NCBI GenBank assembly: GCA_945860915.1
Contig: CAMARR010000011.1
Span: forward strand, 1,394 to 65,393
Direction of reading: 5' to 3'
Length of the DNA: 64,000 nt
From: Candidatus Kuenenia stuttgartensis
GTDB taxonomy: Bacteria > Planctomycetota > GCA-002687715 > CAIWVZ01
The translations under genes and the position numbers were made by a program. Each line of letters opens with the position of its first letter. Position 1 is the stretch's first letter. The notes under the pieces are model-generated. The model was not told the DNA's origin. It made no database searches and saw only the letters and a program-made list of their open reading frames with translations. Positions 4,264 to 56,185 of this stretch are shown here, piece after piece.

Positions 4264-5307
4264 TTACGAGCCGATGTAACGGTCGTAAATCGCGCGCGCA
4301 ATCGCAGGATCACGCGTCCCGCGCACCAAGGCGCGCCCGTCGTCGAAGACGGTGATGTCGTGTCCGCCGGTCCGAAACGTCAACGAAAATCCGTTGGAGG
4401 TGACATCGCCGAGAGTTGCGAGCCTTGCCGCGAGACCATCAAGCGACGGCGGGCCGCGGCGCTGCGGGACCACCTGAACGGCATCGCGACCACAGTAGGT
4501 AATGAACCGCTCACGCGCGCCGCCTTCGAGGAAAACAAACTTCCGCTCGGCGCAGCACGGACAGTCGGGGGCCCGCACGGCGTCGGCAGCGACGGTTGCC
4601 ATTCGAAATGGCCAAAGTTCGATTGACAAGTAGCCTCGACGAACGGCATCGAGGTCTCGCACCAGAATCTTGATCGCCTCGGCGGTCTGCAAGGCAGCGA
4701 CCATCGTCGCGATGGGTGCAATGACGCCAGCCGTTTCACACGTTGCAGTCGCGCCAATTGGCGGAAGTTCACGGAACAAACAACGAAGACAGGGCGTTAC
4801 TTGAGGGATGACGACTGCGGTCAATCCCGTCGCGCCGACACAGCCGCCATACACCCAGGGGATGCTCTCGCGCACGCACCAGTCGTTAAGAAGATAGCGA
4901 GTCGCAAGGTTGTCCGTTCCATCAAGAACTAGGTCGACCTCGCCGATGATCTCCTCAAGCGTGTCGGCACGCACGTCAGCCACCTTGGGGCGAATGTGGA
5001 CTCCGCGATTGAACTGCGTGAGGTGACGGGCGAGCGCGATAGCCTTTGGCAGACGCGTGCGAGCATCCTCGTCCGTGTAAAGGGACTGACGCCCCAAATT
5101 GGATTCCTCGACGACATCACGATCGACAATGGTGACCGTCCCGACGCCGCTTCGAACCAATTGCTCCGCGATGGATGCGCCAAGTGCTCCGGCGCCAACC
5201 AACGCTACACGGCTTGAAAGCAGTTTTTCCTGCCCGGCAAGGCCGATTTTCTTGAACGTAACTTGACGCGCATATCGCGCGTCATGCGGGCTTCCTGATG
5301 CATCCAT
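4264..5307 (-). CDS. ThiF/MoeB/HesA-family E1-like adenylyltransferase with C-terminal extension
   Basis: Has the Rossmann motif VALVGAGALGASIAEQLVRSGVG, then IVDRDVVEESNLGRQ, and Zn-site cysteines CLRC...CPCC. The tail (VFDDGRALVRGTRD...YDRYIGS) resembles the long Firmicute-type ThiF/MoeB from memory. ATG at 5307 is preferred over the track start at 5442. Confidence 0.85.
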   Translation of the reverse strand: MDASGSPHDARYARQVTFKKIGLAGQEKLLSSRVALVGAGALGASIAEQLVRSGVGTVTIVDRDVVEESNLGRQSLYTDEDARTRLPKAIALARHLTQFNRGVHIRPKVADVRADTLEEIIGEVDLVLDGTDNLATRYLLNDWCVRESIPWVYGGCVGATGLTAVVIPQVTPCLRCLFRELPPIGATATCETAGVIAPIATMVAALQTAEAIKILVRDLDAVRRGYLSIELWPFRMATVAADAVRAPDCPCCAERKFVFLEGGARERFITYCGRDAVQVVPQRRGPPSLDGLAARLATLGDVTSNGFSLTFRTGGHDITVFDDGRALVRGTRDPAIARAIYDRYIGS

Positions 5308-5433
5308 CCGATGATTGGTTATCAGGTGTTCGCCGCGAAGGCAACTTGGCTGCTTGTTCCACCCCGACGGTGACCTTACGATCCCCCGGTCGCAACCCCG
5401 GAACCAACTGATAGTGCGGAGACCTGCATCCCC

Positions 5434-6459
5434 TTGACCCACGACGCCCAGACTTACTTCAAGACCTCTCGATCACTGTGGTTTCCGGTGTCGGTGAACG
5501 CGATGATCCTAGGCACGGTTGGGATTATCGTCTTCCAGTTGGCGACGGCCTTGCTTTGCCTTGCGTCAGGCGAGCCAGGTGCCACCCAGTACCGTTTGAT
5601 GGGGTTCCCGGTTGCCGTCACCGAACTCATCACGCACGTGCATTGGCCTGGAAACGGCGATTGGGTCTTCTGTGCACAACTTCTTATCGCCTACGTACTT
5701 TGGGCGAGGCTTGCGCCGGCCATTGCGCGCATCACGGCAGTTCGCATTGCGCGAGATCAGTACATCACCCTCGGCGAAGCGCTCCGATTTTCGGGCGTCC
5801 ACTTCAACACCGCACTTCTCCACATTCCCGCGGTCGCCCTTCCTGCAGCTTTTTGCGCATGTGTCGTAATCCTGATCGGCGCCATCAGTCAGTTCTGGGC
5901 GCCCCTGTGGATACTCGGCGCCTTGCTGCTTCCGATCGCAGTGCTCTGCACAGCGCTCGCAGGTGCGCTAGTCCTCGTGGGCACACTCGCGATGTTCTAT
6001 ACGCCTGGAGCCATCGCCGTTGAAGGCAAGCGCACGTATGACGGACTCGGAAAGACATTCAACTACCTTCTCGCCCGACCGTTCTCCGCCCTCACGCACC
6101 TCGCCCTCATCGTCATCTTCTTCCGTGTGCTCAATGCAGGCATCTTCGGTGACCTGCGAGACCGGACCGCGAGCCTTCTTGGCGTCCTCAACTTCATCGA
6201 CACCTCAAGTTTCCGCGATATCGTTCGAGGTAATTCGGATGTCGATGGCCCTGTCGCGACCTTCGCGGCCTGGCTCTGGAATGCCATGTGGTGGCTTCTG
6301 GAAGCAGTGATTACCGGAGCGTTGTTGTCTTGGGCAATTGCAGCCTGCACGTCATCGTGGTTGATCCTGCGACAGGACATCGACGGCAATGATGTCGGTC
6401 ACGTCGTGGACACAGCCGAGCTGTCGCTCGATCCTTCGTGGGAGAGCAAAAAAGACTGA
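5434..6459 (+). CDS. polytopic integral membrane protein, unknown function
   Basis: Multiple long hydrophobic segments. Divergent from the E1-like gene. TTG start at 5434, with an alternative ATG at 5503. Confidence 0.6.
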   Translation: MTHDAQTYFKTSRSLWFPVSVNAMILGTVGIIVFQLATALLCLASGEPGATQYRLMGFPVAVTELITHVHWPGNGDWVFCAQLLIAYVLWARLAPAIARITAVRIARDQYITLGEALRFSGVHFNTALLHIPAVALPAAFCACVVILIGAISQFWAPLWILGALLLPIAVLCTALAGALVLVGTLAMFYTPGAIAVEGKRTYDGLGKTFNYLLARPFSALTHLALIVIFFRVLNAGIFGDLRDRTASLLGVLNFIDTSSFRDIVRGNSDVDGPVATFAAWLWNAMWWLLEAVITGALLSWAIAACTSSWLILRQDIDGNDVGHVVDTAELSLDPSWESKKD

Positions 6460-13311: not shown

Positions 13312-14096
13312 GCTGATGACAGCACCAACGCTGCGAATATGTAGCCTAGCCCTTCAACGCCACCAATCCACGGATCGCGATCAACGGAGACCCTACGGTC
13401 GAGCTCGGTTGGCGTCATATCGAGGACCAATCGCGCCACGACGAACTGTCTGAATGGGTAGAGCGCCAAGACCCAGACTAGGGAACGTCCGAAGGCTACG
13501 AGGGACGGACGCCATCCGTCAAACGTCCCCTCGGTCGCGCCGACGACCATCAGAGCAACCGAGAGGTGGAGTCCTGCGGAGGCCAACGCGGCTGCAATGT
13601 TCCCGGCGGCAACTTCATCCTGATCTCTAAAGCCTGTCACTTTGCGATGCGTTGCGCAGATCACGATGAGGGCAAGCCAACAGATACCGGCATAGGCAGC
13701 GCCAATGACGAATGACTGACCATCGACACCGCCAAAGCAGGCGGTCGAGACCGCTGCCGCTCCAAAAATGTGTGCGGTCCCTTGGATCGCGGCTGCGGGA
13801 TTGCTCGAGGCCAAAGAGCTCAGCCTCGGGAGCGGATACGCAAGGCTCACGAGCAAGTAGCCGAGCGGAAGCGCCAACACGGCAGCGACAATCTGGACAC
13901 TGGCCCATGCAAGATGAGTGCCGTCAATCGCCTTGAGTCGCGAAGCCCAGTCGCCGGCGTCGGGCACAAGTGCGACCACCGAAACCACTGCGTGGTCCAC
14001 GGCGGAAAGCACGGTTGCCGCGAGCGCGAGATGCATTGCCCCGCGAAGGAGTCGGGCAGGCACTGGTTGCGCGATCGAATTCGCAGAGGTCGTCAT
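13305..14096 (-). CDS. DUF350-like polytopic membrane protein (apparently two DUF350-type halves)
   Basis: Hydrophobic throughout. FRDQDEVAAGNIAAALASAGLHLSVALMVVGA matches the DUF350/YjfL signature as I recall it. Overlaps the ligase start by 7 nt. Confidence 0.75.
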   Translation of the reverse strand: MTTSANSIAQPVPARLLRGAMHLALAATVLSAVDHAVVSVVALVPDAGDWASRLKAIDGTHLAWASVQIVAAVLALPLGYLLVSLAYPLPRLSSLASSNPAAAIQGTAHIFGAAAVSTACFGGVDGQSFVIGAAYAGICWLALIVICATHRKVTGFRDQDEVAAGNIAAALASAGLHLSVALMVVGATEGTFDGWRPSLVAFGRSLVWVLALYPFRQFVVARLVLDMTPTELDRRVSVDRDPWIGGVEGLGYIFAALVLSSAW

Positions 14097-14193
14097 GTCA
14101 CCGCTCCTCCGTCATCGGACTACTGACGTGTGAGAAGCCTAGGCTTATTGGCAGCGCGTGGCAAGGCGGACCCAATCGGACTACCATGCGCAC

Positions 14194-15231
14194 ATGCGAG
14201 GCGAACTGGCACAGAAAGACACGAGGCTGAAAGCGTGGTGTGCCGCCACGGGCCATGACGGCATTCACCTCCGAACTCGTGCGAACGTTGCGTGGATCAC
14301 GGGTGGTTCCGACGTTTGCGTTGATCGTGCTTCTCCTCTCGGCGTCGCAAGTGTGCTTTGGACGCCACACGAGAAAGTGGTTCTGACCGATACGATCGAG
14401 GCTCGCCGTTTATTGGACGAAGAGGTTCCGTCAGGGTTCTCAATCTCTGCACATGACTGGTTCTCCTCTTCGACGCCGATCGCTGACGGCATCGCGACCG
14501 ACTTCCCGAATGACCCAATCACCGCGCTTCGCGCTCCGCTCACGCGCGAAGAAATTACCCGCTATCGCAAGCTCGGCTTTCTTGTGTCCACCGTCGTCGA
14601 ATCCGTGCTCAAGGACGTGCGAGTCGGAGATTCCGAGCTAGAGGTCGCGGGGCGACTCGCGGGAGTCCTTGCAACGCGCGGTGTGTCCTGTCCCGTGACA
14701 CTCGCCGCAGCCGACGGTCGTATCGCGGCTTACCGTCACCCGATCCCAACCAACTTGCGCATCGAGAAGGCGCTCATGCTCATCGTGTGCGCGGAGCGAC
14801 AGGGACTCATTGTCGCCATGACTCGCCTGATCCACTTCGGAGCCATCGCGAGCGACCTGCGAGCGCGTCATCACGCTTGCTGTACGGTGGACACGGCACT
14901 CCACAACGCGACGCAATACGGAACACCGCTTGCCGACATTTTCAGTTTGGCACAGCGGACCTACGCTGAAATGGGATTCGATGGCGAATGGTGCTTCCAC
15001 CATCAGGGTGGCCCCATTGGGTATCGGCCGCGTGACGCCATCGTCGTGCCGCAGGGCCCCGGACTTGTGCTTAAAGGGCAAGCCTATGCGTGGAACCCGT
15101 CAATTACGGGAACGAAAAGTGAAGACACGATCCTCGCGGGGGGAGAGGTACTAACGCCGTGCATCGACTGGCCGCTTGAAGAGTCGGGCCGGCCAGATTG
15201 GCTAGTGCGGCCCGCTACTCGTCGACGATAA
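14194..15231 (+). CDS. M24-family (creatinase/prolidase fold) peptidase
   Basis: N-terminal creatinase-like region followed by a pita-bread fold region (HHQGGPIGY, WNPSITGTKSEDT). ATG at 14194 inside track ORF 14158..15231. Confidence 0.75.
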   Translation: MRGELAQKDTRLKAWCAATGHDGIHLRTRANVAWITGGSDVCVDRASPLGVASVLWTPHEKVVLTDTIEARRLLDEEVPSGFSISAHDWFSSSTPIADGIATDFPNDPITALRAPLTREEITRYRKLGFLVSTVVESVLKDVRVGDSELEVAGRLAGVLATRGVSCPVTLAAADGRIAAYRHPIPTNLRIEKALMLIVCAERQGLIVAMTRLIHFGAIASDLRARHHACCTVDTALHNATQYGTPLADIFSLAQRTYAEMGFDGEWCFHHQGGPIGYRPRDAIVVPQGPGLVLKGQAYAWNPSITGTKSEDTILAGGEVLTPCIDWPLEESGRPDWLVRPATRRR

Positions 15232-17858: not shown

Positions 17859-18761
17859 ATGGCGGACTCAGGCGCGCGCGGGGCGACGATCGAAGACCTC
17901 GCTTTCATTGAGGACATCTGCAGAGACATCGCTCTCAAGACGCGAAGCTCCGTCTTGCCCTACCCTGCATTTGCGCTGGCGCTCGGGGATTCACTCATAG
18001 TCCACCGCGCTACGAAGGACGGGCGAACTATCGCTCTGGCAACAGCCATCGATCGAGGTCGGGAGCTCGACCTTTTCTTGATTGCTGTGTCATTCAGCCA
18101 ACGTCGGACGGGAATCGCAGGAGAGTTGCTTGACCAGCTGACCGCGCAGCATCTGAAGGTCGGGAAGAGCCGCCGGATCTTCGCGAACTGCTGGCCAGGA
18201 TCAGGCGGAGGCCCTGGCGCGTTGCTCGCCGCCGGATTCTCGACGGCCCCGGGCAAGGTCCGATGGACTCGCGATGCAGGCCCAACGTCGATTCCGCCTG
18301 CGAAAGTATCCCTCCTTCAGTGGAATGACTTAAAGAGCATCTCCCTCGACCGGCGGGCCCGTCTCTTGGGAGCGGTGGGTGCCGCGTGGCCAGGCGATGC
18401 CGACCCTGTCCCGGTACTGGCGGCGCTCAGCTCGGCACGCGACTCGCAAATCCTCATAGGACTCCACAACGACGAGGTCAAGGCTGTTCTCGCCGGCGTT
18501 TCGGTTGGCGACACGTTCCATATTCTGCTTGGCTTCGAAATCGAAACAGGGCATGGCGAAGGGATCGACGGCGGTCTTGCGATCCTCCTCGAAAACGCCA
18601 AAACCTGTGGCGTGAAGAGCCTTTCCGTCGAAACGGCGGTTCCAACTGCCAGAACCGCTCCAACCCTTACTCGCCTCGGATTCCGATCGGTCGAGGCGGC
18701 GGCGGGCTTCCTCGCCGGGACTCCCGGCCACGCTTTCGAAGGAAACGCCTTCGCACTATGA
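17859..18761 (+). CDS. tandem GNAT-family N-acetyltransferase
   Basis: First half carries the GNAT core LIAVSFSQRRTGIAGELLDQL. Second half has a GNAT-like beta-alpha pattern. ATG at 17859; the track start is GTG at 17820. Confidence 0.7.
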   Translation: MADSGARGATIEDLAFIEDICRDIALKTRSSVLPYPAFALALGDSLIVHRATKDGRTIALATAIDRGRELDLFLIAVSFSQRRTGIAGELLDQLTAQHLKVGKSRRIFANCWPGSGGGPGALLAAGFSTAPGKVRWTRDAGPTSIPPAKVSLLQWNDLKSISLDRRARLLGAVGAAWPGDADPVPVLAALSSARDSQILIGLHNDEVKAVLAGVSVGDTFHILLGFEIETGHGEGIDGGLAILLENAKTCGVKSLSVETAVPTARTAPTLTRLGFRSVEAAAGFLAGTPGHAFEGNAFAL

Positions 18762-18817
18762 ACAGGGCTCGAAACCTTCCGGCCTTGAGTTCGTATCATC
18801 GAGCGGAGGATCTGTTC

Positions 18818-19816
18818 ATGAGAGTCCTGTTATCAGTCATGGTCGCCACGATCTTAAGCTGCGCCATCAGCGCGCAGGTCAAGGTCGGTGATAAGGCAGC
18901 GTGGCCCGAAGCGAAGTCTTTAGGCTACACAAAGATGAAAACCATCAACGAGGCCAAAGGCAAGTTGGTCCTCCTCGAGTACTTCGCCTTCTGGTGAGGA
19001 CCTTGCAAAACGGGCATGCCCCACCTCAACCAGTTGGTTGAGAAATACGGTAAGAAGGGTTTCTTGGCGATCGGCGTGACGAGCGAACCTGAAGGCCCCA
19101 CCAAGGGGTTCATGGAATCCACGTCAGCCAAGATGGCTGTTGCTTTTGAGCCAGGCCTCAAGAGCATGAAAGCGTACGGATTCACAGGGTTCCCATCGTC
19201 TGCACTCGTTTCGCCGAAAGGCGTGGTGGTGTGGACTGGACATCCGTCGAGCCTCACCGAGAAGATCATCGAAGACAACTTGGTCGGTGTTGTGATGAAC
19301 AGCAGCGGCAAGCTCACTGTCGATGTCGAGCTGCCGAAGAAGTACAGCGCGATCGTCAAGCAGCTCGAAAAGGGCGACTTGGGCGAAGGCATGAAGGCTC
19401 TTGATGCCGCAATCGCGGCGCAAAGCGTCAGCGAGACGGACAAAACGGCTCTCGAAGCCGCGAAGTCCGCGACGCAGAACGTCTTGGACGAAGAGACCAA
19501 AGCCGTCGACGCCGCAGTGACTGAAGAACGATGGCACGACGCGACCTTGGGTTGGAAGCGTATCGCGACTCACTTCAAGGGGCACGAGGCTGCCAAGGTA
19601 GCCGACACCAGCGCAGCCGATGTGCTGAAGGATCCTGCAAAGAAGAAGGAGCTCGAGGCCGGCCAACGCATCGCGGACGCCCAGAAGGCAGCAGCTGCGG
19701 GCAAGAAGAAGGAAGCCTTAGGCATCCTCGACAACTTGGGAACCGGGTATCTCAAGGACACCAAGGAAGCGGCACGGGCCAAGACCGTCGCCGACGAGAT
19801 CAAGAAAGACGGTTGA
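18818..19816 (+). CDS. secreted TlpA/ResA-like thioredoxin-fold oxidoreductase with in-frame TGA (candidate selenocysteine) plus C-terminal helical domain
   Basis: SD GGAGGA at 18805..18810 and ATG at 18818. Signal peptide MRVLLSVMVATILSCAISAQ. Track ORFs 18386..18997 and 19016..19816 share one frame, separated only by TGA at 18995..18997. Read-through gives LLEYFAFW-U-GPCKTGMPHLNQLVEKYGKKGFLAIGVT. Confidence 0.7.
19025..19042 (+). other. candidate SECIS-like hairpin (7-bp stem CUCAACC/GGUUGAG, loop AGUU)
   Basis: Read directly. The stem starts 28 nt after the TGA, and the loop lies about 35-38 nt downstream. Confidence 0.35.
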
Positions 19817-19958
19817 TCCTTCAAGGTCGCCATCAAGCGCCCCCGGGTCATTGATCTGGGGGCGTTTTCATTGCCACCGGGACAAAAATCGCAATGATGA
19901 TGGCCGAATGAACCCAAGCGTCGGCGACACCCCGCCACCACGATCAGGACAAACCACC

Positions 19959-21230
19959 ATGCGTTTCGCGGCCATAATTTTAGGACTCGTCGCCAGCACC
20001 GCTTCGCTCCTCGCTCAAACCGAGGCCGCGCCAACAACGATGCCGACGAAGCACGCGTGGATCCGCATGGGAGGCGACCCTGCAACGAAATCAACCCTGG
20101 AAATCGCGCTACGTCGATTCGATCGACCTGACGGAATCGCTGTCACCCTAGTAGGCGTTGCCCACGTTGGTGAAAAGAGTTTCTACGAAGCACTTCAACA
20201 GAAACTGAATACCTTTGATGTGGTCCTCTACGAGTCGGTGCTTCCAGACGGAGCATCACGCCCCGAGGGCTCGAACGACACGGAGCGAACAGAAGCAACG
20301 ACTCGCTCACTCAAGTTCCTAGGTGACACCGCGCGGCGCTTTCGCGAGGAGGCGGGTGCGTGGCCTCTCACAATCGACGAACTCGGCGCATGGGCAAAGA
20401 AGCTAGACCCGCGAGTCGGTCATGGTGTTCGCAACGCATCAACAGACGCATGGGGCATTGCGATCACCTGCGCCGTTGACGCTGCAACCGGGGAATTCAC
20501 GGTTCAAACCACGAGTCGCGATGGTCGCCCATCCTTGACATTCAAAGTCGAACTCCCGACGTCGAAGCCAACCGACAAAAAACCCAAGAAAGCTCCGAGC
20601 AACGTCCAACGGGACTTGGCTCACGCCCTCGGCCTCTCATATCAACTCGACGGCATCGACTATGCCGGTGCCAGCTTCGTTCATGCGGACGCAACCCTCG
20701 GTGATGTCGAACGCGGAATGAAAGCTGCGGGTGGGAACTTCGAGCGAATCGACTCACTTCTGCGAGGATCGGGTCCGATGGGCACGGTCCTTCAACTCAT
20801 GATCAGTCTGATCAAGAACTCCAGTGACGACACCAAAGGAATGATGCGTGGCCTCTTGGTCGAGCTCTTAGCCTCGGCCGACGACAGAATGACCGACGCT
20901 CTCGGCAAAGGAACGTCAGACGTGATCGTTGGGATGCGTAATCGCGTGGCGTTCCGTGAACTTGACCGCTTTCTGATGCAGTCTCGTCCACCTCGGACAA
21001 TCGCGATCTTCTACGGGGCACTGCACCTCGACGACATGTCCGCACGGCTCGAAGAGCGCGGGTTTCGTGCAAGCGCAGCCGACTGGCTCACCGCCATCAC
21101 TGCCGAAGCAACGCCGGGCGGCAACGACAACCTGCGCAAGCAGCTGCTTGGAGGCATGAAGAAGGCCGGAGAAAAGCGTAAAGCACCGACATCACGTCCC
21201 GACTCAAAGCCGGCAAACGAAGGTCGCTAG
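19959..21230 (+). CDS. secreted TraB/GumN-family-like protein
   Basis: ATG at 19959 gives signal peptide MRFAAIILGLVASTASLLAQ. VTLVGVAHVGEKSFY...VVLYE and a C-terminal IAIFYGALHL pattern resemble TraB/GumN; this is from memory. Confidence 0.55.
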   Translation: MRFAAIILGLVASTASLLAQTEAAPTTMPTKHAWIRMGGDPATKSTLEIALRRFDRPDGIAVTLVGVAHVGEKSFYEALQQKLNTFDVVLYESVLPDGASRPEGSNDTERTEATTRSLKFLGDTARRFREEAGAWPLTIDELGAWAKKLDPRVGHGVRNASTDAWGIAITCAVDAATGEFTVQTTSRDGRPSLTFKVELPTSKPTDKKPKKAPSNVQRDLAHALGLSYQLDGIDYAGASFVHADATLGDVERGMKAAGGNFERIDSLLRGSGPMGTVLQLMISLIKNSSDDTKGMMRGLLVELLASADDRMTDALGKGTSDVIVGMRNRVAFRELDRFLMQSRPPRTIAIFYGALHLDDMSARLEERGFRASAADWLTAITAEATPGGNDNLRKQLLGGMKKAGEKRKAPTSRPDSKPANEGR

Positions 21231-32689: not shown

Positions 32690-33754
32690 TCAGCCTCCGA
32701 TAGTCACAAGCATGCCACCCGTCGCAGTGGCCGGGCCAACAGCAGTCGGCACTCCGGACGGATCAAAGACGATCGCTTGAAGGGCAACCGATGCCCCAAC
32801 GAGTGACGACCAAGCCGGTATCGGCAAATTCCATTCGACTGCGCCGCTACCGTCCACCACGCCAGGGACTACGCCGAGCCACGTCCCAGGAGTCGGGTCG
32901 ACAAGCAGAGGAAAAGTCAGTCCCTGCACCCCGATGTCCATGTACGTCGGTGCATTGGACATCGCGAGAACCGCGGGCGCCCCGATGTAGGCCGATGACA
33001 CGTGCAAAGCGAACGCCGTGTTGCCGGTGAGCGGCTGACCGACTGTTTCGATCAACGGCGTACCGGTCGATCCGCCTACTCCGTAACCATAGGAGAGAAC
33101 TGCCCCGGGCGTTGCGGGGACAGTCCACGTCCAACGCGACTTCAGTGCATTGATGGCTGAGTTAGTCGGAGAGAATGCGTTCCAGCCCGAGGCATACATG
33201 CGCTGGAGCACGCTTTCACGTCTAAACGTGCCGTTCCAACCCGTCGTCGTGGCGCAAGTCGTTCCGGAGACAGTGACGAGGACGCCGACGTCGCGTACGC
33301 CGTCCCAGGCGAAAGGCGTCGTTCCCGACCAAAGTGGGCTCCATGTATTGGCTACACAGTTCCAGCTCACCGAACCCGTCGTCAGGTTGTTGATCAGAGA
33401 CGAGCCGCCGGCAAGTGCGCCCGCAAATCCAGAGATCATGGGTGACGCATTGAGGTGACCGATCGTCACACGAATCTGGGGGAAGTTGAGGGTTCCGGTA
33501 CCACTCGCAGCGAACGCAATGGATGTTGGCGAAGCCCCCACTGAGAGGCCTTTCGACTGCAACTCGGCAACTGGGAGAACCGTGAGCTCTGTCCACGACC
33601 CTGGAGTGGCACCGAAGTACGTCGAAAACGGGATCGCATTGCTCCCGGCACTTCCGGCCGGATTGAGATCGGGGAAACCGGTAGTCACAGATTGAGCCAC
33701 GAGGGAGCAGGTCAGAAGCGAGGCGAAGATGTATGACTGAAGCCGGAACTGCAT
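32690..33754 (-). CDS. secreted protein of unknown function with shared C-terminal module
   Basis: Signal peptide MQFRLQSYIFASLLTCSLVAQS. The C-terminus (YGYGVGGSTGTP...LVGASVALQAIVFDPSG...LVTIGG) matches the module seen in 3 other genes. Confidence 0.7.
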   Translation of the reverse strand: MQFRLQSYIFASLLTCSLVAQSVTTGFPDLNPAGSAGSNAIPFSTYFGATPGSWTELTVLPVAELQSKGLSVGASPTSIAFAASGTGTLNFPQIRVTIGHLNASPMISGFAGALAGGSSLINNLTTGSVSWNCVANTWSPLWSGTTPFAWDGVRDVGVLVTVSGTTCATTTGWNGTFRRESVLQRMYASGWNAFSPTNSAINALKSRWTWTVPATPGAVLSYGYGVGGSTGTPLIETVGQPLTGNTAFALHVSSAYIGAPAVLAMSNAPTYMDIGVQGLTFPLLVDPTPGTWLGVVPGVVDGSGAVEWNLPIPAWSSLVGASVALQAIVFDPSGVPTAVGPATATGGMLVTIGG

Positions 33755-33899
33755 GGCGTCTCGAGCTCCTATCGGGGCTCACGCAAAGCCTATCCCCGAC
33801 AATGGCTTGCGGCGAATCGGCAACGAAATTTGGCCTCGTCGCCAGTCCGATCGGAGTGCGCTAAGGTGGATTGCCGCACTCACGTGCGCCTTATCGCCA

Positions 33900-35918
33900 A
33901 TGACCCACGAACATTCGACCTCGTGTCCGATGGATTGCCCGGATGCGTGCAGCTTAACAGCGGTCGTCGAAGGCGATCGCTTGGTGGCCCTCAAGGGCTC
34001 CACGACGAATCCATTTACCGCCGGCTTCATGTGTTCCAAAATGCAGCGCTACCCAGAACGCGTGCACGGTGCGGACCGGCTTCACTATCCGCTCATGCGG
34101 AATGGGCCTAAAGGCACCAAGTCATTTCGTCGAGTGTCGTGGGAGGAAGCGCTCGCGCATGTGGCGAGGAGAATCTCGACCATTCGAGAAACCTTCGGCC
34201 CCGGGTCGGTACTCCCCTATCACTATGACGGCTCAAACGGTGTCTTCGCTACTGGGATGGTCGATGACGCCCTGTGGCGGTCGCTAGGTGTCTGCGAGCC
34301 CATACGCACCTTATGCGCGGCACCAGCATCCGGCGCTGCGACCGCCATCTACGGGAAAATGCCGGGCACGGATCCGACCGACCTTGCCTATTCCAAGACC
34401 ATCGTCCTCTGGGGGCAGAACCCTCGCGTCTCAAACATCCATCTCGTTCCCCACCTCAACGCGGCACTGGATCGCGGCGCCAAGCTTGTCGTGCTCGACC
34501 CTCGCAAGACCGGGATGGCGAAACGAGCCCACCTTCACGTTCCGCTGTGGCCCGGCTCGGACCTAGCGATCGCGTTAGCGCTCATCGCTGAGTGTGAGCG
34601 CCGCGGTTTGGTGGCGCACGAGTTCCTCAAGAATCACACACGCCATGCGGACCTCCTCCTCGCCGCCGCGGCTCCATGGACCTTGGAACGAGCGGCGCAC
34701 GAGGCGCGCGTGCCAGTCGCCACGCTGAAATCACTCGCCGATCTCTACCTCGGAACCGAGCGACCCGTCATGACTCGCATTGGATGGGGCCTCGAACGCA
34801 ACAGAAACGGCGACGGGGCCATGGCTGCGCTCCTCGCGCTTCCCGCAGTCTGCGGACACTTCGGAGTCCGAGGCGGTGGGTATCTTCTTTCGCAGTCGGG
34901 CGCCTGGCGTGTCGCCGCGCAGGATCTCGCGGGGGTGCCAGACTCGCCACGCCGCCACGTCAATATCTCCCAGCTCGCCACTGCGCTACGTGCCGACGAA
35001 GCTGAGCCGATCAAAGCGCTTATCGTGTACGACGCCAACCCGATGGTGTCGACCCCCGATCAGGAGGGCGTGCGCAGGGGGCTGCAACGCGAAGACCTGT
35101 TTACGGTAGTCATGGAACAGGTCATGACGGACACCTGCGACTACGCGGATGTGATCCTCCCGGTTCCAACGTTCATAGAACAGCATGAGTTGCACCGCGC
35201 ATACGGAACGAGCATCCTGCAACGCATCACCCCTGCCATTCCAGCCGTGGGTGAGTCCCGACCGAATGAGGTGATCTTCGCGGACCTCGCTCGACGACTC
35301 GGCTTTGAAGGACCCGCCTTCGACCCATCACCGGCCGCACTGGAAGCAAGGTGGCTTAAAACTGTTAAGGGCGCAGGCCCCGACGACCTCGATAGGCTGC
35401 GCGCCACGGGATCGGCGACATTGACTTCACCCACCGGTCGTCCGCCCGTCGCGTTTGTCGACGTCTTCCCGTACACGAAGGACCAACGGGCAGACCTACA
35501 CCCAGAGGAATGGCGCGCGAAGGGCGTCGACGTTTTCGCCTTTGCTCCAGACCCGAGCGTTCCGGAAACTCCCTTTGCCGTCCTCTCGCCGGCGACAGAC
35601 TCGACGATCAACTCGATCTTGGGTGAACTAAGCGACCGCACCCTGCCATGTCACATTTCGCCTGGCGATGCGGCCCTCGTCGGTGTATCCGACGGCGACT
35701 TTGTCAAGTTGAGCAATTCCACAGGGTCACTCGTCGCCAAGGCCACATTAGATCCAGACCTGCGACCGGGAGTCCTCGTCGTCCCGAAGGGCGTGTGGCT
35801 GCGCAATGGGCCGGCGCGAGCTACGGCCAACGCGTTGGTGTCCGAAGCAGTCACGCCAGCGACCGGAGGTGCGACCTACAACGACGCGCGCGTACGGCTA
35901 GTACGCCTCGATCCCTGA
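33900..35918 (+). CDS. cytoplasmic molybdopterin-dependent oxidoreductase (MopB/COG0243 superfamily)
   Basis: ATG at 33900. N-terminal 4Fe-4S cysteine group SCPMDCPDACSL...(x)...MCSK. Length and layout fit bis-MGD enzymes. No Tat signal. Confidence 0.85.
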   Translation: MTHEHSTSCPMDCPDACSLTAVVEGDRLVALKGSTTNPFTAGFMCSKMQRYPERVHGADRLHYPLMRNGPKGTKSFRRVSWEEALAHVARRISTIRETFGPGSVLPYHYDGSNGVFATGMVDDALWRSLGVCEPIRTLCAAPASGAATAIYGKMPGTDPTDLAYSKTIVLWGQNPRVSNIHLVPHLNAALDRGAKLVVLDPRKTGMAKRAHLHVPLWPGSDLAIALALIAECERRGLVAHEFLKNHTRHADLLLAAAAPWTLERAAHEARVPVATLKSLADLYLGTERPVMTRIGWGLERNRNGDGAMAALLALPAVCGHFGVRGGGYLLSQSGAWRVAAQDLAGVPDSPRRHVNISQLATALRADEAEPIKALIVYDANPMVSTPDQEGVRRGLQREDLFTVVMEQVMTDTCDYADVILPVPTFIEQHELHRAYGTSILQRITPAIPAVGESRPNEVIFADLARRLGFEGPAFDPSPAALEARWLKTVKGAGPDDLDRLRATGSATLTSPTGRPPVAFVDVFPYTKDQRADLHPEEWRAKGVDVFAFAPDPSVPETPFAVLSPATDSTINSILGELSDRTLPCHISPGDAALVGVSDGDFVKLSNSTGSLVAKATLDPDLRPGVLVVPKGVWLRNGPARATANALVSEAVTPATGGATYNDARVRLVRLDP

Positions 35919-54668: not shown

Positions 54669-55301
54669 TTGCCGACCGAGACTCAACCTCATCACACCGA
54701 GACTGCCTTGAACTCAGCCATTGAATCCATCGAAGCCGCCGTTGCCCAAGCCAAGATCGACACCAAAGCCGCCGGCTGGCGTGACCGCGTCGGAACATTC
54801 CCCAAAACCTCATTTGCCGGGTCGGGCCCGATCCACTGGAAGCTCGAAACGAGCGCCGGCGACATCACATTCCGATTGATGCACGAGATCGCCCCGAATC
54901 ACGCGGCCAGCACGATCTGGCTTACGAAGCTCGGCTTCTTCGACGGCTTGTCGTTCCATCGCATCATCCGCGGCTTCATGGCCCAGGGCGGATGTCCGCG
55001 CGGCGACGGCCGCGGCGGCCCGGCCTATAAGTATGCGGGCGAGTTTGCACCGAAGGTCTCCCACACCAAGCAAGGGCTCCTGTCGATGGCGAACGCCGGC
55101 CCCGGGACCGACGGTTCTCAGTTCTTCATCACCTTCGTGCCCACCGAGTACCTCGATGGCAAGCACACGATTTTCGGCGAGATGATCGAAGAGCCATCGA
55201 ACGTCGCGACGCTTCTCGCACTCGAAGCGGTTCCGACCGGAGCTCAGGATCGCCCGAAGACTCCAGTCCTCATCAAGAAGGCGACGATCATCGCATCATG
55301 A
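54669..55301 (+). CDS. cytoplasmic cyclophilin-type peptidyl-prolyl isomerase
   Basis: [31 protein letters not shown] and TIFGEM. No signal peptide. TTG start at 54669. Confidence 0.85.
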   Translation: MPTETQPHHTETALNSAIESIEAAVAQAKIDTKAAGWRDRVGTFPKTSFAGSGPIHWKLETSAGDITFRLMHEIAPNHAASTIWLTKLGFFDGLSFHRIIRGFMAQGGCPRGDGRGGPAYKYAGEFAPKVSHTKQGLLSMANAGPGTDGSQFFITFVPTEYLDGKHTIFGEMIEEPSNVATLLALEAVPTGAQDRPKTPVLIKKATIIAS

Positions 55302-56185
55302 CGTTCTCCCCGCGCACCGAAGGGGCGAACCCTCGCTCCAAGGACCTCGATCTTCTCAGCACGGAAGCAATGCTCCGCGTGATGAACGATGAAGACCGCC
55401 GCGTCGCAGACGCGGTGGCCGAGGTCATCCCTGCCGTTGCGAGAGCTGTCGATGCGATCGCCGCGCGTATGGAGAGCGGGGGGCACTATCACCTTTTCGG
55501 TGCAGGGACCTCAGGGCGATTGGCGGTGCTTGACGCCGCTGAATGCCCTCCGACCTTTGGGACTCCGCACGACTGGGTCGTCGCCCATCTCGCCGGAGGG
55601 CAAAGTGCGATGTTTGTCGCTGCGGAAGGCGCGGAAGATTCCGAGGGCCTTGGAGCAGAGGACGTCGCGGCAGCCCGAATCACCCCGAAGGACGCCGTCA
55701 TCGCGGTCGCCGCGAGCGGACGCACGCCCTATGCGATCGGCGTCCTGCGCTCCGCGCGAAAGTGCGGAGCCTTTACCGTTGCGCTTGTCTGCAATCGTCC
55801 AACTCCGATGCACGACGAGGCCGAGTTGGTCATTGACCCCGCAGTCGGTGAGGAAGTCTTGTCAGGCTCGACACGCCTCAAGTCCGGAACGGCCCAGAAG
55901 CTTGTCCTCAACATGATCTCGACCGGAGTCATGATTCGACTCGGTCGCACCTATGGAAACCTGATGGTGGGGGTGCAATCGACCAACGAGAAGCTCCGCG
56001 CCCGCGCCGTGAGACTCGTGGAGACAATCACTGGCCCAAACTCTGGCATTCCAGAGGCACTTGCTGCGTCTGGCCACGATGTCCGCGTGGCCTGCATCAT
56101 GATCAAGCTGAAGGTCTCGGCCGCAGACGGCAAGGCGCGCCTCGACGCTGCCCGAGGATCGCTACGCCGGGCGCTCGACTCCTAG
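55298..56185 (+). CDS. murQ: N-acetylmuramic acid 6-phosphate etherase
   Basis: LSTEAMLRVMNDEDRRV, LFGAGTSGRLAVLDAAECPPTFG and SGSTRLKSGTAQKLVLNMIST match the MurQ SIS domain. ATGA overlap with the upstream gene. Confidence 0.85.
   Translation: MTFSPRTEGANPRSKDLDLLSTEAMLRVMNDEDRRVADAVAEVIPAVARAVDAIAARMESGGHYHLFGAGTSGRLAVLDAAECPPTFGTPHDWVVAHLAGGQSAMFVAAEGAEDSEGLGAEDVAAARITPKDAVIAVAASGRTPYAIGVLRSARKCGAFTVALVCNRPTPMHDEAELVIDPAVGEEVLSGSTRLKSGTAQKLVLNMISTGVMIRLGRTYGNLMVGVQSTNEKLRARAVRLVETITGPNSGIPEALAASGHDVRVACIMIKLKVSAADGKARLDAARGSLRRALDS

Follow-up and report, generated by a model that had tools for sequence, protein, structure and literature searches.

A putative exported TlpA-like selenoprotein with an in-frame UGA at its redox motif in a planctomycete genome

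Among thioredoxin-fold proteins, pairs of selenocysteine (Sec) and cysteine (Cys) forms have counted as textbook examples from 2004-2005 onwards. The first prediction of a "thiol-disulfide isomerase-like" selenoprotein with a UxxC motif (U denoting Sec) goes back to the Sargasso Sea metagenome study of Zhang, Fomenko and Gladyshev in 2005 (PMC1088965). A 2026 review places this family in cd02966 (TlpA-like); among its further entries are a TlpA family selenoprotein with UGC and, in Table 1, a Sec-containing thioredoxin (PF00085, UxxC) (PMC13188914). The gene considered here occupies positions 18818-19816 of a 64,000-nucleotide stretch of DNA from Candidatus Kuenenia stuttgartensis (contig CAMARR010000011.1), called the window below. 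A preliminary description, made from the letters alone, proposed a TlpA-like selenoprotein with TGA at the first Cys of its redox motif, and regarded Sec/Cys pairs of thioredoxin fold as an established class. The listing of UxxC TlpA-like proteins in both publications agrees with that view.

Judged from comparison of sequences, UGA-60 very probably encodes Sec in one undivided gene, whose product would be an exported thiol-disulfide oxidoreductase of the TlpA/ResA/DsbE type. The gene, on the + strand, has 332 codons and a lone internal in-frame TGA, at 18995-18997 (codon 60); its reading frame closes at an ordinary TGA, 19814-19816. Renewed reading of window positions 18300-19950 together with the list of open reading frames (ORFs) upheld the earlier account of the locus: the two ORFs, 18386..18997 and 19016..19816, share one frame, and only the TGA at 18995-18997 stands between them. 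Translation of 18818-19816 gives ...KGKLVLLEYFAFW* up to the codon 60 stop, followed by GPCKTGMPHLNQLVEKYGKKGF...; the product read through codon 60 is thus ...LLEYFAFW-U-GPCKTGMPHLNQLVEKYGKKGF... The elements of the gene are as follows.

18805..18810, + strand: Shine-Dalgarno-like GGAGGA, read directly, with a 7-nt spacer to ATG 18818.
18818..19816, + strand: complete coding sequence of the putative selenoprotein, 332 codons including UGA-60, plus the TGA stop at 19814-19816; orthologues give full-length tblastn matches that span the internal TGA.
18818..18874, + strand: predicted signal peptide for Sec-type export, MRVLLSVMVATILSCAISA, with cleavage before QVKVGD; from sequence features and the pattern in orthologues.
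18884..19282, + strand: TlpA/ResA/DsbE-like thioredoxin-fold domain, residues ~23-155; from Pfam, NCBIfam, PDB 3gl3 and Foldseek.
18995..18997, + strand: in-frame UGA, codon 60, read as probable Sec; TGA in 15 orthologues, TGC or TGT in 39 homologues, and the 3gl3 alignment.
18995..19006, + strand: redox motif U-G-P-C, where strand β1 meets helix α1; from the translation, the 3gl3 alignment and the AlphaFold model of a Cys orthologue, P0005.
19025..19042, + strand: hairpin resembling a selenocysteine insertion sequence (SECIS), with a 7-bp stem, CUCAACC/GGUUGAG, and an AGUU loop; from folding, covariation and codon usage.
19337..19813, + strand: C-terminal all-α domain of 8 helices, arranged as helical hairpins resembling tetratricopeptide repeats (TPR); from an AlphaFold model.

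Orthologues were gathered by genome and metagenome scans and by contig look-ups; the matches from the genome scan are all metagenome-assembled genomes (MAGs) of Planctomycetota. The TGA is kept in 15 distinct orthologues (Planctomycetota or metagenome), with 43-82% protein identity. Fourteen of these were aligned (the window, L001, L003, L004, L017, L020, L021, L022 and L082-L087), and the fifteenth is L089. The context is the same throughout: TGA stands at W-U-(G/T/K)-P-C, and the protein sequence is conserved on either side. The preliminary description had already pointed to conservation of the fold past the stop. Codon third positions differ most among the aligned orthologues, both upstream and downstream of the TGA. 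The gene is continuous across this codon. Remoter members of the family, at ~31% identity (L024/L028, L025, L027, L046, L057 and L090), likewise carry W-U-G-P-C.

At the aligned position, 39 distinct homologues have a Cys codon, TGC or TGT. Sec and Cys forms are therefore paired at this site, in line with two expectations of the preliminary description: Cys codons replace the TGA in aligned homologues, and U falls on the first Cys of the WCGPC motif in PDB 3gl3. One of the Cys forms is P0005/L088, an orthologue with the motif HWCGPC. Its identity is 51% with the window protein and 63% with P0006 and P0007, both Sec forms; since it is closer to these two than they are to the window protein, it appears to be nested among Sec forms.

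The hairpin at 19025-19042, CUCAACC-AGUU-GGUUGAG, folds with -10.4 kcal/mol (z = -4.67; 0/200 shuffles as stable). It begins 27 nt past the UGA, and the UGA-to-loop distance is 34 nt. The published model of bacterial SECIS elements has a loop of 3-9 nt with G among its first two positions, usually followed by G or U; a stem of 4-16 bp; a spacing of 16-37 nt; and a folding energy of at most -7.5 kcal/mol (PMC13188914). The window hairpin fits this model, its loop having G in second place and U in third; in all, 13 of the 14 aligned orthologues fit it, always with a spacing of 34 nt. In all 14 the hairpin occupies the same position, the AGUU loop is invariant, and 96% of the stem cells are paired; the hairpin is also present in L089.

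The stem covaries. Among the 14 orthologues, pair 1 changes from C-G to G-C in 4 sequences and pair 6 from C-G to U-A in 3; at these two pairs both sides always change together. A third pair type, A-U, is found at pair 1 in L089. None of 500 shuffles reaches the covariation score, and pairing is lost when the partner is shifted by 1-3 columns. The U-A variant couples a synonymous Asn change (AAC to AAT) to Val to Ile (GTT to ATT), which suggests that selection acts on the RNA and not on the protein. Codon usage is equally skewed: the Leu codon of the hairpin is TTG in 14/14 orthologues, compared with 5.2% of Leu codons elsewhere in the same genes, and its Val codon is GTT in 9/11, compared with 3.2%. 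The Cys orthologue L088 has no hairpin, M-N-E-L-A-E replacing L-N-Q-L-V-E. More generally, the best hairpin after the codon averages -10.2 kcal/mol in Sec forms versus -6.5 kcal/mol in Cys forms (Mann-Whitney p = 1.7e-5). The 7-bp AGUU hairpin of the preliminary description thus behaves as a conserved, covarying RNA structure.

The distant Sec members at ~31% identity (L046, L057, L024, L025, L027 and L090) lack the AGUU hairpin. In L046 (312) and L057 (424) a classical GC-rich hairpin of 7 bp follows the UGA at a distance of 17 nt and has a GUG loop; in L090 no local hairpin is obvious. A search of the window with CAGTTG for further hairpins of the AGUU type gave matches at chance level. A lower stem, or a first GC-rich hairpin at +15..+28, was also considered. 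It is seen in some orthologues only, is weak in the window and shifts register, and is not claimed.

The protein itself belongs to the thioredoxin fold. Profile searches were run with U replaced by C, and their matches cover residues 23-146. Pfam assigns Redoxin (PF08534; 9e-14, 51.9 bits, cutoff 26.6), AhpC-TSA (PF00578; 4e-12, 46.5 bits, cutoff 26) and Thioredoxin (PF00085; 7e-7, 29.6 bits, cutoff 23.5). The best solved relative is the DsbE-like structure PDB 3gl3 (3.7e-17); others are 4nmu, 1st9 and 1jfu (ResA, TlpA). In the 3gl3 alignment, U60-G-P-C63 lies on WCGPC, and the cis-Pro loop G-M-P-T is matched by G-F-P126-S, in which P126 does not vary within the family. The AlphaFold model of this fold is that of the full-length Cys orthologue P0005, not of the window protein. 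In it (mean predicted local distance difference test, pLDDT, 82.7), the CxxC motif (C79) sits between a strand, 69-74, and a helix, 80-99. Foldseek matches the model to ResA and DsbE-like structures with target-normalised template-modelling (TM) scores of 0.7-0.79 and probability 1.00. Pfam Redoxin, 3gl3 and Foldseek all support the TlpA/ResA-like fold that had been proposed.

Family membership is a narrower matter. The top ranks in NCBIfam are ResA, TlpA and DsbE, each far under its curated cutoff: 64 versus 170 bits for ResA (NF002854), 40 versus 230 bits for TlpA (NF047696), and 33 versus 123 bits for DsbE/CcmG (TIGR00385). The ResA-like WAxxUGC selenoprotein family (NF041054) gives 28 versus 300 bits; its motif is U-G-C, compared with U-G-P-C here. 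The protein is filed as TlpA-like UxxC rather than under any of these names because it works like them but falls below their curated thresholds. It may represent an unlisted subfamily of TlpA-like UxxC selenoproteins, distinct from ResA, TlpA, DsbE and WAxxUGC proper.

Beyond the thioredoxin fold lies the helical C-terminal domain of ~160 residues that the preliminary description had singled out. It is conserved in Sec and Cys forms alike. The C-terminal ~160-170 residues, modelled with AlphaFold from window 19292-19813, form 8 helices and nothing else (pLDDT 95.3; predicted TM score 0.87). Comparison of this domain with Pfam, at E up to 10, returned no family, and Foldseek against PDB returned nothing better than E = 0.3, with a faint likeness to YbgF-TPR, BamD, LapB and BepA.

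At the other end of the protein, MRVLLSVMVATILSCAISA followed by QVKVGD resembles a cleavable signal peptide. The N-termini of orthologues stay hydrophobic and end in A-x-A/G-A, followed by Q/E-V-K/E-V-G.

These elements can be combined in a model. The ribosome would start at ATG 18818 and reach UGA-60, where the mRNA hairpin with its AGUU loop would recruit the elongation factor SelB together with Sec-tRNASec. Sec would be inserted in place of termination, and translation would run to the TGA at 19814-19816. The signal peptide would then drive export to the periplasm, with cleavage near A19/Q20. In the mature protein, the U-G-P-C centre would lie at the N-terminus of helix α1 of the thioredoxin fold. 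Sec could attack a substrate disulfide, or other oxidised sulfur, to form a selenenylsulfide that would be resolved by Cys63. Presumably, a membrane electron shuttle of the CcdA/DsbD type then returns the oxidised U-C centre to its reduced state, as it does in Cys relatives. The 8-helix C-terminal domain most likely binds a substrate or partner.

Several observations weigh against Sec at codon 60, or against the hairpin as its signal. The first concerns machinery: selA, selB, selD and tRNA-Sec were found neither in the 64-kb window nor in the flanks fetched; of this genome, the search covered 64-70 kb. The second is a calibration of the hairpin. Among 400 random TGA triplets from the window (both strands, 60% GC), 52% precede a hairpin that fits the SECIS model, and 25% precede one at least as stable as the candidate. 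Third, the 34-nt spacing is close to the 37-nt upper limit of the published model. Finally, some of the covariation consists of amino-acid changes (L/E to V/D) and conceivably reflects co-variation at the protein level.

The calibration has a clear consequence: in a single sequence the hairpin is weak evidence, not beyond chance, and it was dropped as stand-alone evidence. Folding of the whole 81-nt region 18990-19070 also is not significant (z = -1.0). Conservation of the hairpin across orthologues, unlike the single-sequence hairpin, is beyond chance. Taken by itself, the SECIS model hardly discriminates in GC-rich genomes; synonymous codons and covariation are decisive.

The search for machinery covered several sources. 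ARAGORN found no tRNA in the window and 30 related loci, hence no tRNA-Sec. SelA, SelB and SelD are absent from the Pfam and NCBIfam matches of ~35 window ORFs and from the precomputed Pfam matches of the flanks. Rfam at gathering thresholds gave no match over the whole window; no bacterial SECIS family was seen in its results, so this negative is uninformative. Complete Sec machinery, along with selenoproteins, is documented for several Planctomycetes (PMC4807772), so that the Sec-decoding trait exists in the phylum.

Two other genes of the window touch on this question. The first, at 33753-35918 (+ strand), encodes, in an uninterrupted frame, a molybdopterin (Mo-bisPGD) oxidoreductase of 721 aa that includes an Fe4S4 domain. 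Its best NCBIfam match is formate dehydrogenase alpha (197 versus a cutoff of 666 bits). It has no in-frame TGA, and so gives no second selenoprotein in support of Sec decoding. The second, at 4264-5442 (- strand), encodes a MoeB/ThiF-family adenylyltransferase of 392 aa, also free of in-frame TGA; MoeB is a listed selenoprotein family in marine metagenomes.

The lack of Sec machinery in the accessible DNA, window and flanks, would suit a different reading, in which the UGA is read through by non-Sec means to yield a selenium-free full-length protein. Near-cognate insertion of Trp or Cys, for example, could be stimulated by the hairpin, and a conserved hairpin could in principle serve this end instead of binding SelB. 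Such read-through is very unlikely. The UGA lies exactly at the catalytic Cys and is exchanged only with Cys codons, a pattern that marks Sec and not leaky termination; a Trp or Arg in its place would destroy the redox centre. Moreover, the hairpin fits the SelB-type SECIS model in its loop (G at 2, then U), its 34-nt distance and its energy, and Sec-decoding Planctomycetes are documented (PMC4807772).

A second alternative starts from the public annotation. For other assemblies of the same organism, an independent gene caller gives a 59-aa ORF starting at ATG 18818 (in L012, 8082-8261, which equals window 18818-18997) and a 266-aa ORF from ATG 19016. The gene is therefore split, as the preliminary description had forecast, and the same is true of the orthologues looked up. 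The caller's first start coincides with the ATG proposed at the outset, 18818, and the Shine-Dalgarno sequence GGAGGA 7 nt upstream of it was confirmed. The second start is of another kind. No Shine-Dalgarno sequence precedes ATG 19016, and the residue there is not conserved, being M, V or T; callers pick ATG, GTG or a TTG that lies inside the hairpin.

The same split recurs throughout the family. A family profile searched against 1.84 billion representative proteins (clusters at 50% identity) found 283 proteins at E of 1e-30 or better. Among the best 150, 100 start no more than 13 residues from the profile start, directly after the redox motif. Their usual first residues are MPHLNQL, VPHLNQL and MGHLNEL. 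For two such split entries the DNA was inspected, and the in-frame TGA is present in each. The remaining 50 of the best 150 are full length: ~37 have CxxC, and ~12 have lost the motif. The latter keep the two-domain architecture (P0048, P0049, P0065, P0071, P0085, P0088, P0113, P0115, P0126, P0136, P0140 and P0173) and look like redox-inactive relatives. One Sec-form member, L090, lies on a contig of near-chromosome size (ctg89735_41x_l, 3,989,566 bp; ENA ERZ25073254).

Taken at face value, the automatic calls, here and in the relatives looked up, would make the TGA a genuine stop, in either a pseudogene or a pair of genes, one for a 59-aa exported peptide and one for a 266-aa protein from ATG 19016. 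This is scarcely credible. In 15 orthologues, with identities as low as 43%, the protein sequence is conserved before and after the TGA, and third positions are the most variable. A stop here would cut the thioredoxin fold between β1 and the CxxC helix, and the second gene would have to begin without a Shine-Dalgarno sequence at a start that is not conserved and in some cases is the TTG of the hairpin. Nor would a pseudogene keep one and the same lesion across lineages, let alone in ~100 clusters at 50% identity.

That the TGA is an artefact of sequencing or assembly (TGC or TGT turned into TGA), or that TGA is reassigned throughout the genome, is an a priori possibility for any metagenome-assembled genome, and here a negligible one: an identical 27-nt context recurs in L012, L013 and L014, which were assembled independently from different samples, and this excludes the assembly error that the preliminary description had named as a possible refutation, 14 other distinct orthologues have the TGA, and TGA closes 34/57 likely genes in the window and the selenoprotein gene itself, being the commonest ordinary stop, so that it is not reassigned in this organism.

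With Sec at codon 60 as the preferred reading, a broader proposal may be put forward tentatively, its chances a little short of even. The window protein may belong to a large, uncatalogued family centred on Planctomycetota that unites a signal peptide, a U-G-P-C TlpA-like domain and a new 8-helix domain; Sec would be its majority state, and the SECIS of the orthologue group would be a lineage-specific AGUU hairpin with an unusually long, invariant 34-nt spacing. If this is true, hundreds of entries in public databases are systematically truncated forms of an exported selenoenzyme.

Downstream of the gene, one further element was recognised.

19835..19867, + strand: likely intrinsic terminator, a 15-bp hairpin leading into a T-run, 19 nt past the stop codon; from folding.

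Its stem is a perfect 15 bp (AAGCGCCCCCGGGUC / GAUCUGGGGGCGUUU). The region 19817-19880 folds with -31.8 kcal/mol (z = -4.45; 0/200 shuffles as stable). A consensus terminator scan did not pick up the hairpin, which probably is the intrinsic terminator of the selenoprotein gene.

The flanking genes, 17859-18761 (+ strand, 300 aa) and 19959-21230 (+ strand, 423 aa), have no Pfam or NCBIfam match; the latter begins with the signal-peptide-like MRFAAIILGLVASTASLLAQ. No gene for cytochrome c maturation, ScoI or CcdA/DsbD was found adjoining the selenoprotein gene, and synteny around it is not conserved in L086 or L087. In L087 (MAG GCA_030426805.1), a gene at 14019-14834, ~3 kb downstream of the Sec gene, encodes a 271-aa protein with AhpC-TSA, Redoxin and Thioredoxin_8 matches, possibly a Cys paralogue.

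The window was also scanned for further in-frame TGAs that have long open flanks and a Cys close by. Apart from the 18995 locus, the only one that looks real, these lie in shadow frames. One, at 55513 (- strand), has the context SP-U-GPC and runs antisense to a SIS-domain gene, 55298-56185. It was judged to be a chance shadow-frame match, since the SIS-domain gene on the + strand has strong Pfam support.

The records of the present genome and of at least nine relatives looked up hold two fragments in place of one gene. This split hides a redox enzyme and under-counts the use of selenium in freshwater and estuarine Planctomycetota. Characterised bacterial selenoproteins are mostly cytoplasmic or are formate dehydrogenases; the window gene adds a selenoprotein predicted to be exported, which combines a UxxC centre with a helical domain not described before. 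The natural switch from Sec to Cys in L088, together with the loss of its hairpin, provides a clean comparative pair for asking why Sec is kept. The finding opens no new category and would not surprise a selenoprotein specialist. Its value lies in correcting a systematic mis-annotation, in a neat case of SECIS covariation, and in a large, putatively exported Planctomycetota selenoprotein family with an uncharacterised helical domain.

Comparison with known systems places the protein among familiar neighbours. With the UxxC selenoproteins of cd02966 it shares the TlpA-like fold; Sec as the first residue of UxxC; widespread Cys homologues; and a stem-loop just past the UGA. Both were predicted by the same comparative logic. 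The cd02966 example, MGB1650493.1, was set beside the window protein by description and not by sequence, so the likeness does not imply identity of subfamily. Unlike that listing, the present family is centred on Planctomycetota MAGs of fresh and estuarine water, and has a predicted cleavable signal peptide, the conserved 8-helix domain, and an AGUU hairpin at 34 nt that is common to the orthologue group.

ResA, TlpA and DsbE (CcmG) are the closest matches in sequence and structure, and have in common with the window protein a CxxC-type motif at the start of α1, the cis-Pro loop and a predicted extracytoplasmic location. Unlike them, the window protein has Sec for the first Cys, a soluble form with a signal peptide and no membrane anchor, and an extra helical domain; its gene does not lie beside genes for cytochrome c maturation or ScoI. 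The curated Sec family NF041054 likewise consists of ResA/TlpA-like selenoproteins of similar length (354-position profile).

Classical thioredoxin is cytoplasmic and has ~105 residues. The Sec-containing thioredoxin of PF00085 shares the W-U-G-P-C type of active site, in which the attack is made by Sec; unlike it, the window protein is predicted to be exported, and has ResA-type insertions and a second domain.

CnoX/YbbN is a cytoplasmic protein in which a thioredoxin fold with no canonical CxxC is followed by helical repeats. Unlike those repeats, the C-terminal domain of the window protein has no significant TPR match (best E = 0.3; TM at most 0.33). By analogy, its CnoX/YbbN-like architecture suggests that the helical domain may hold a substrate.

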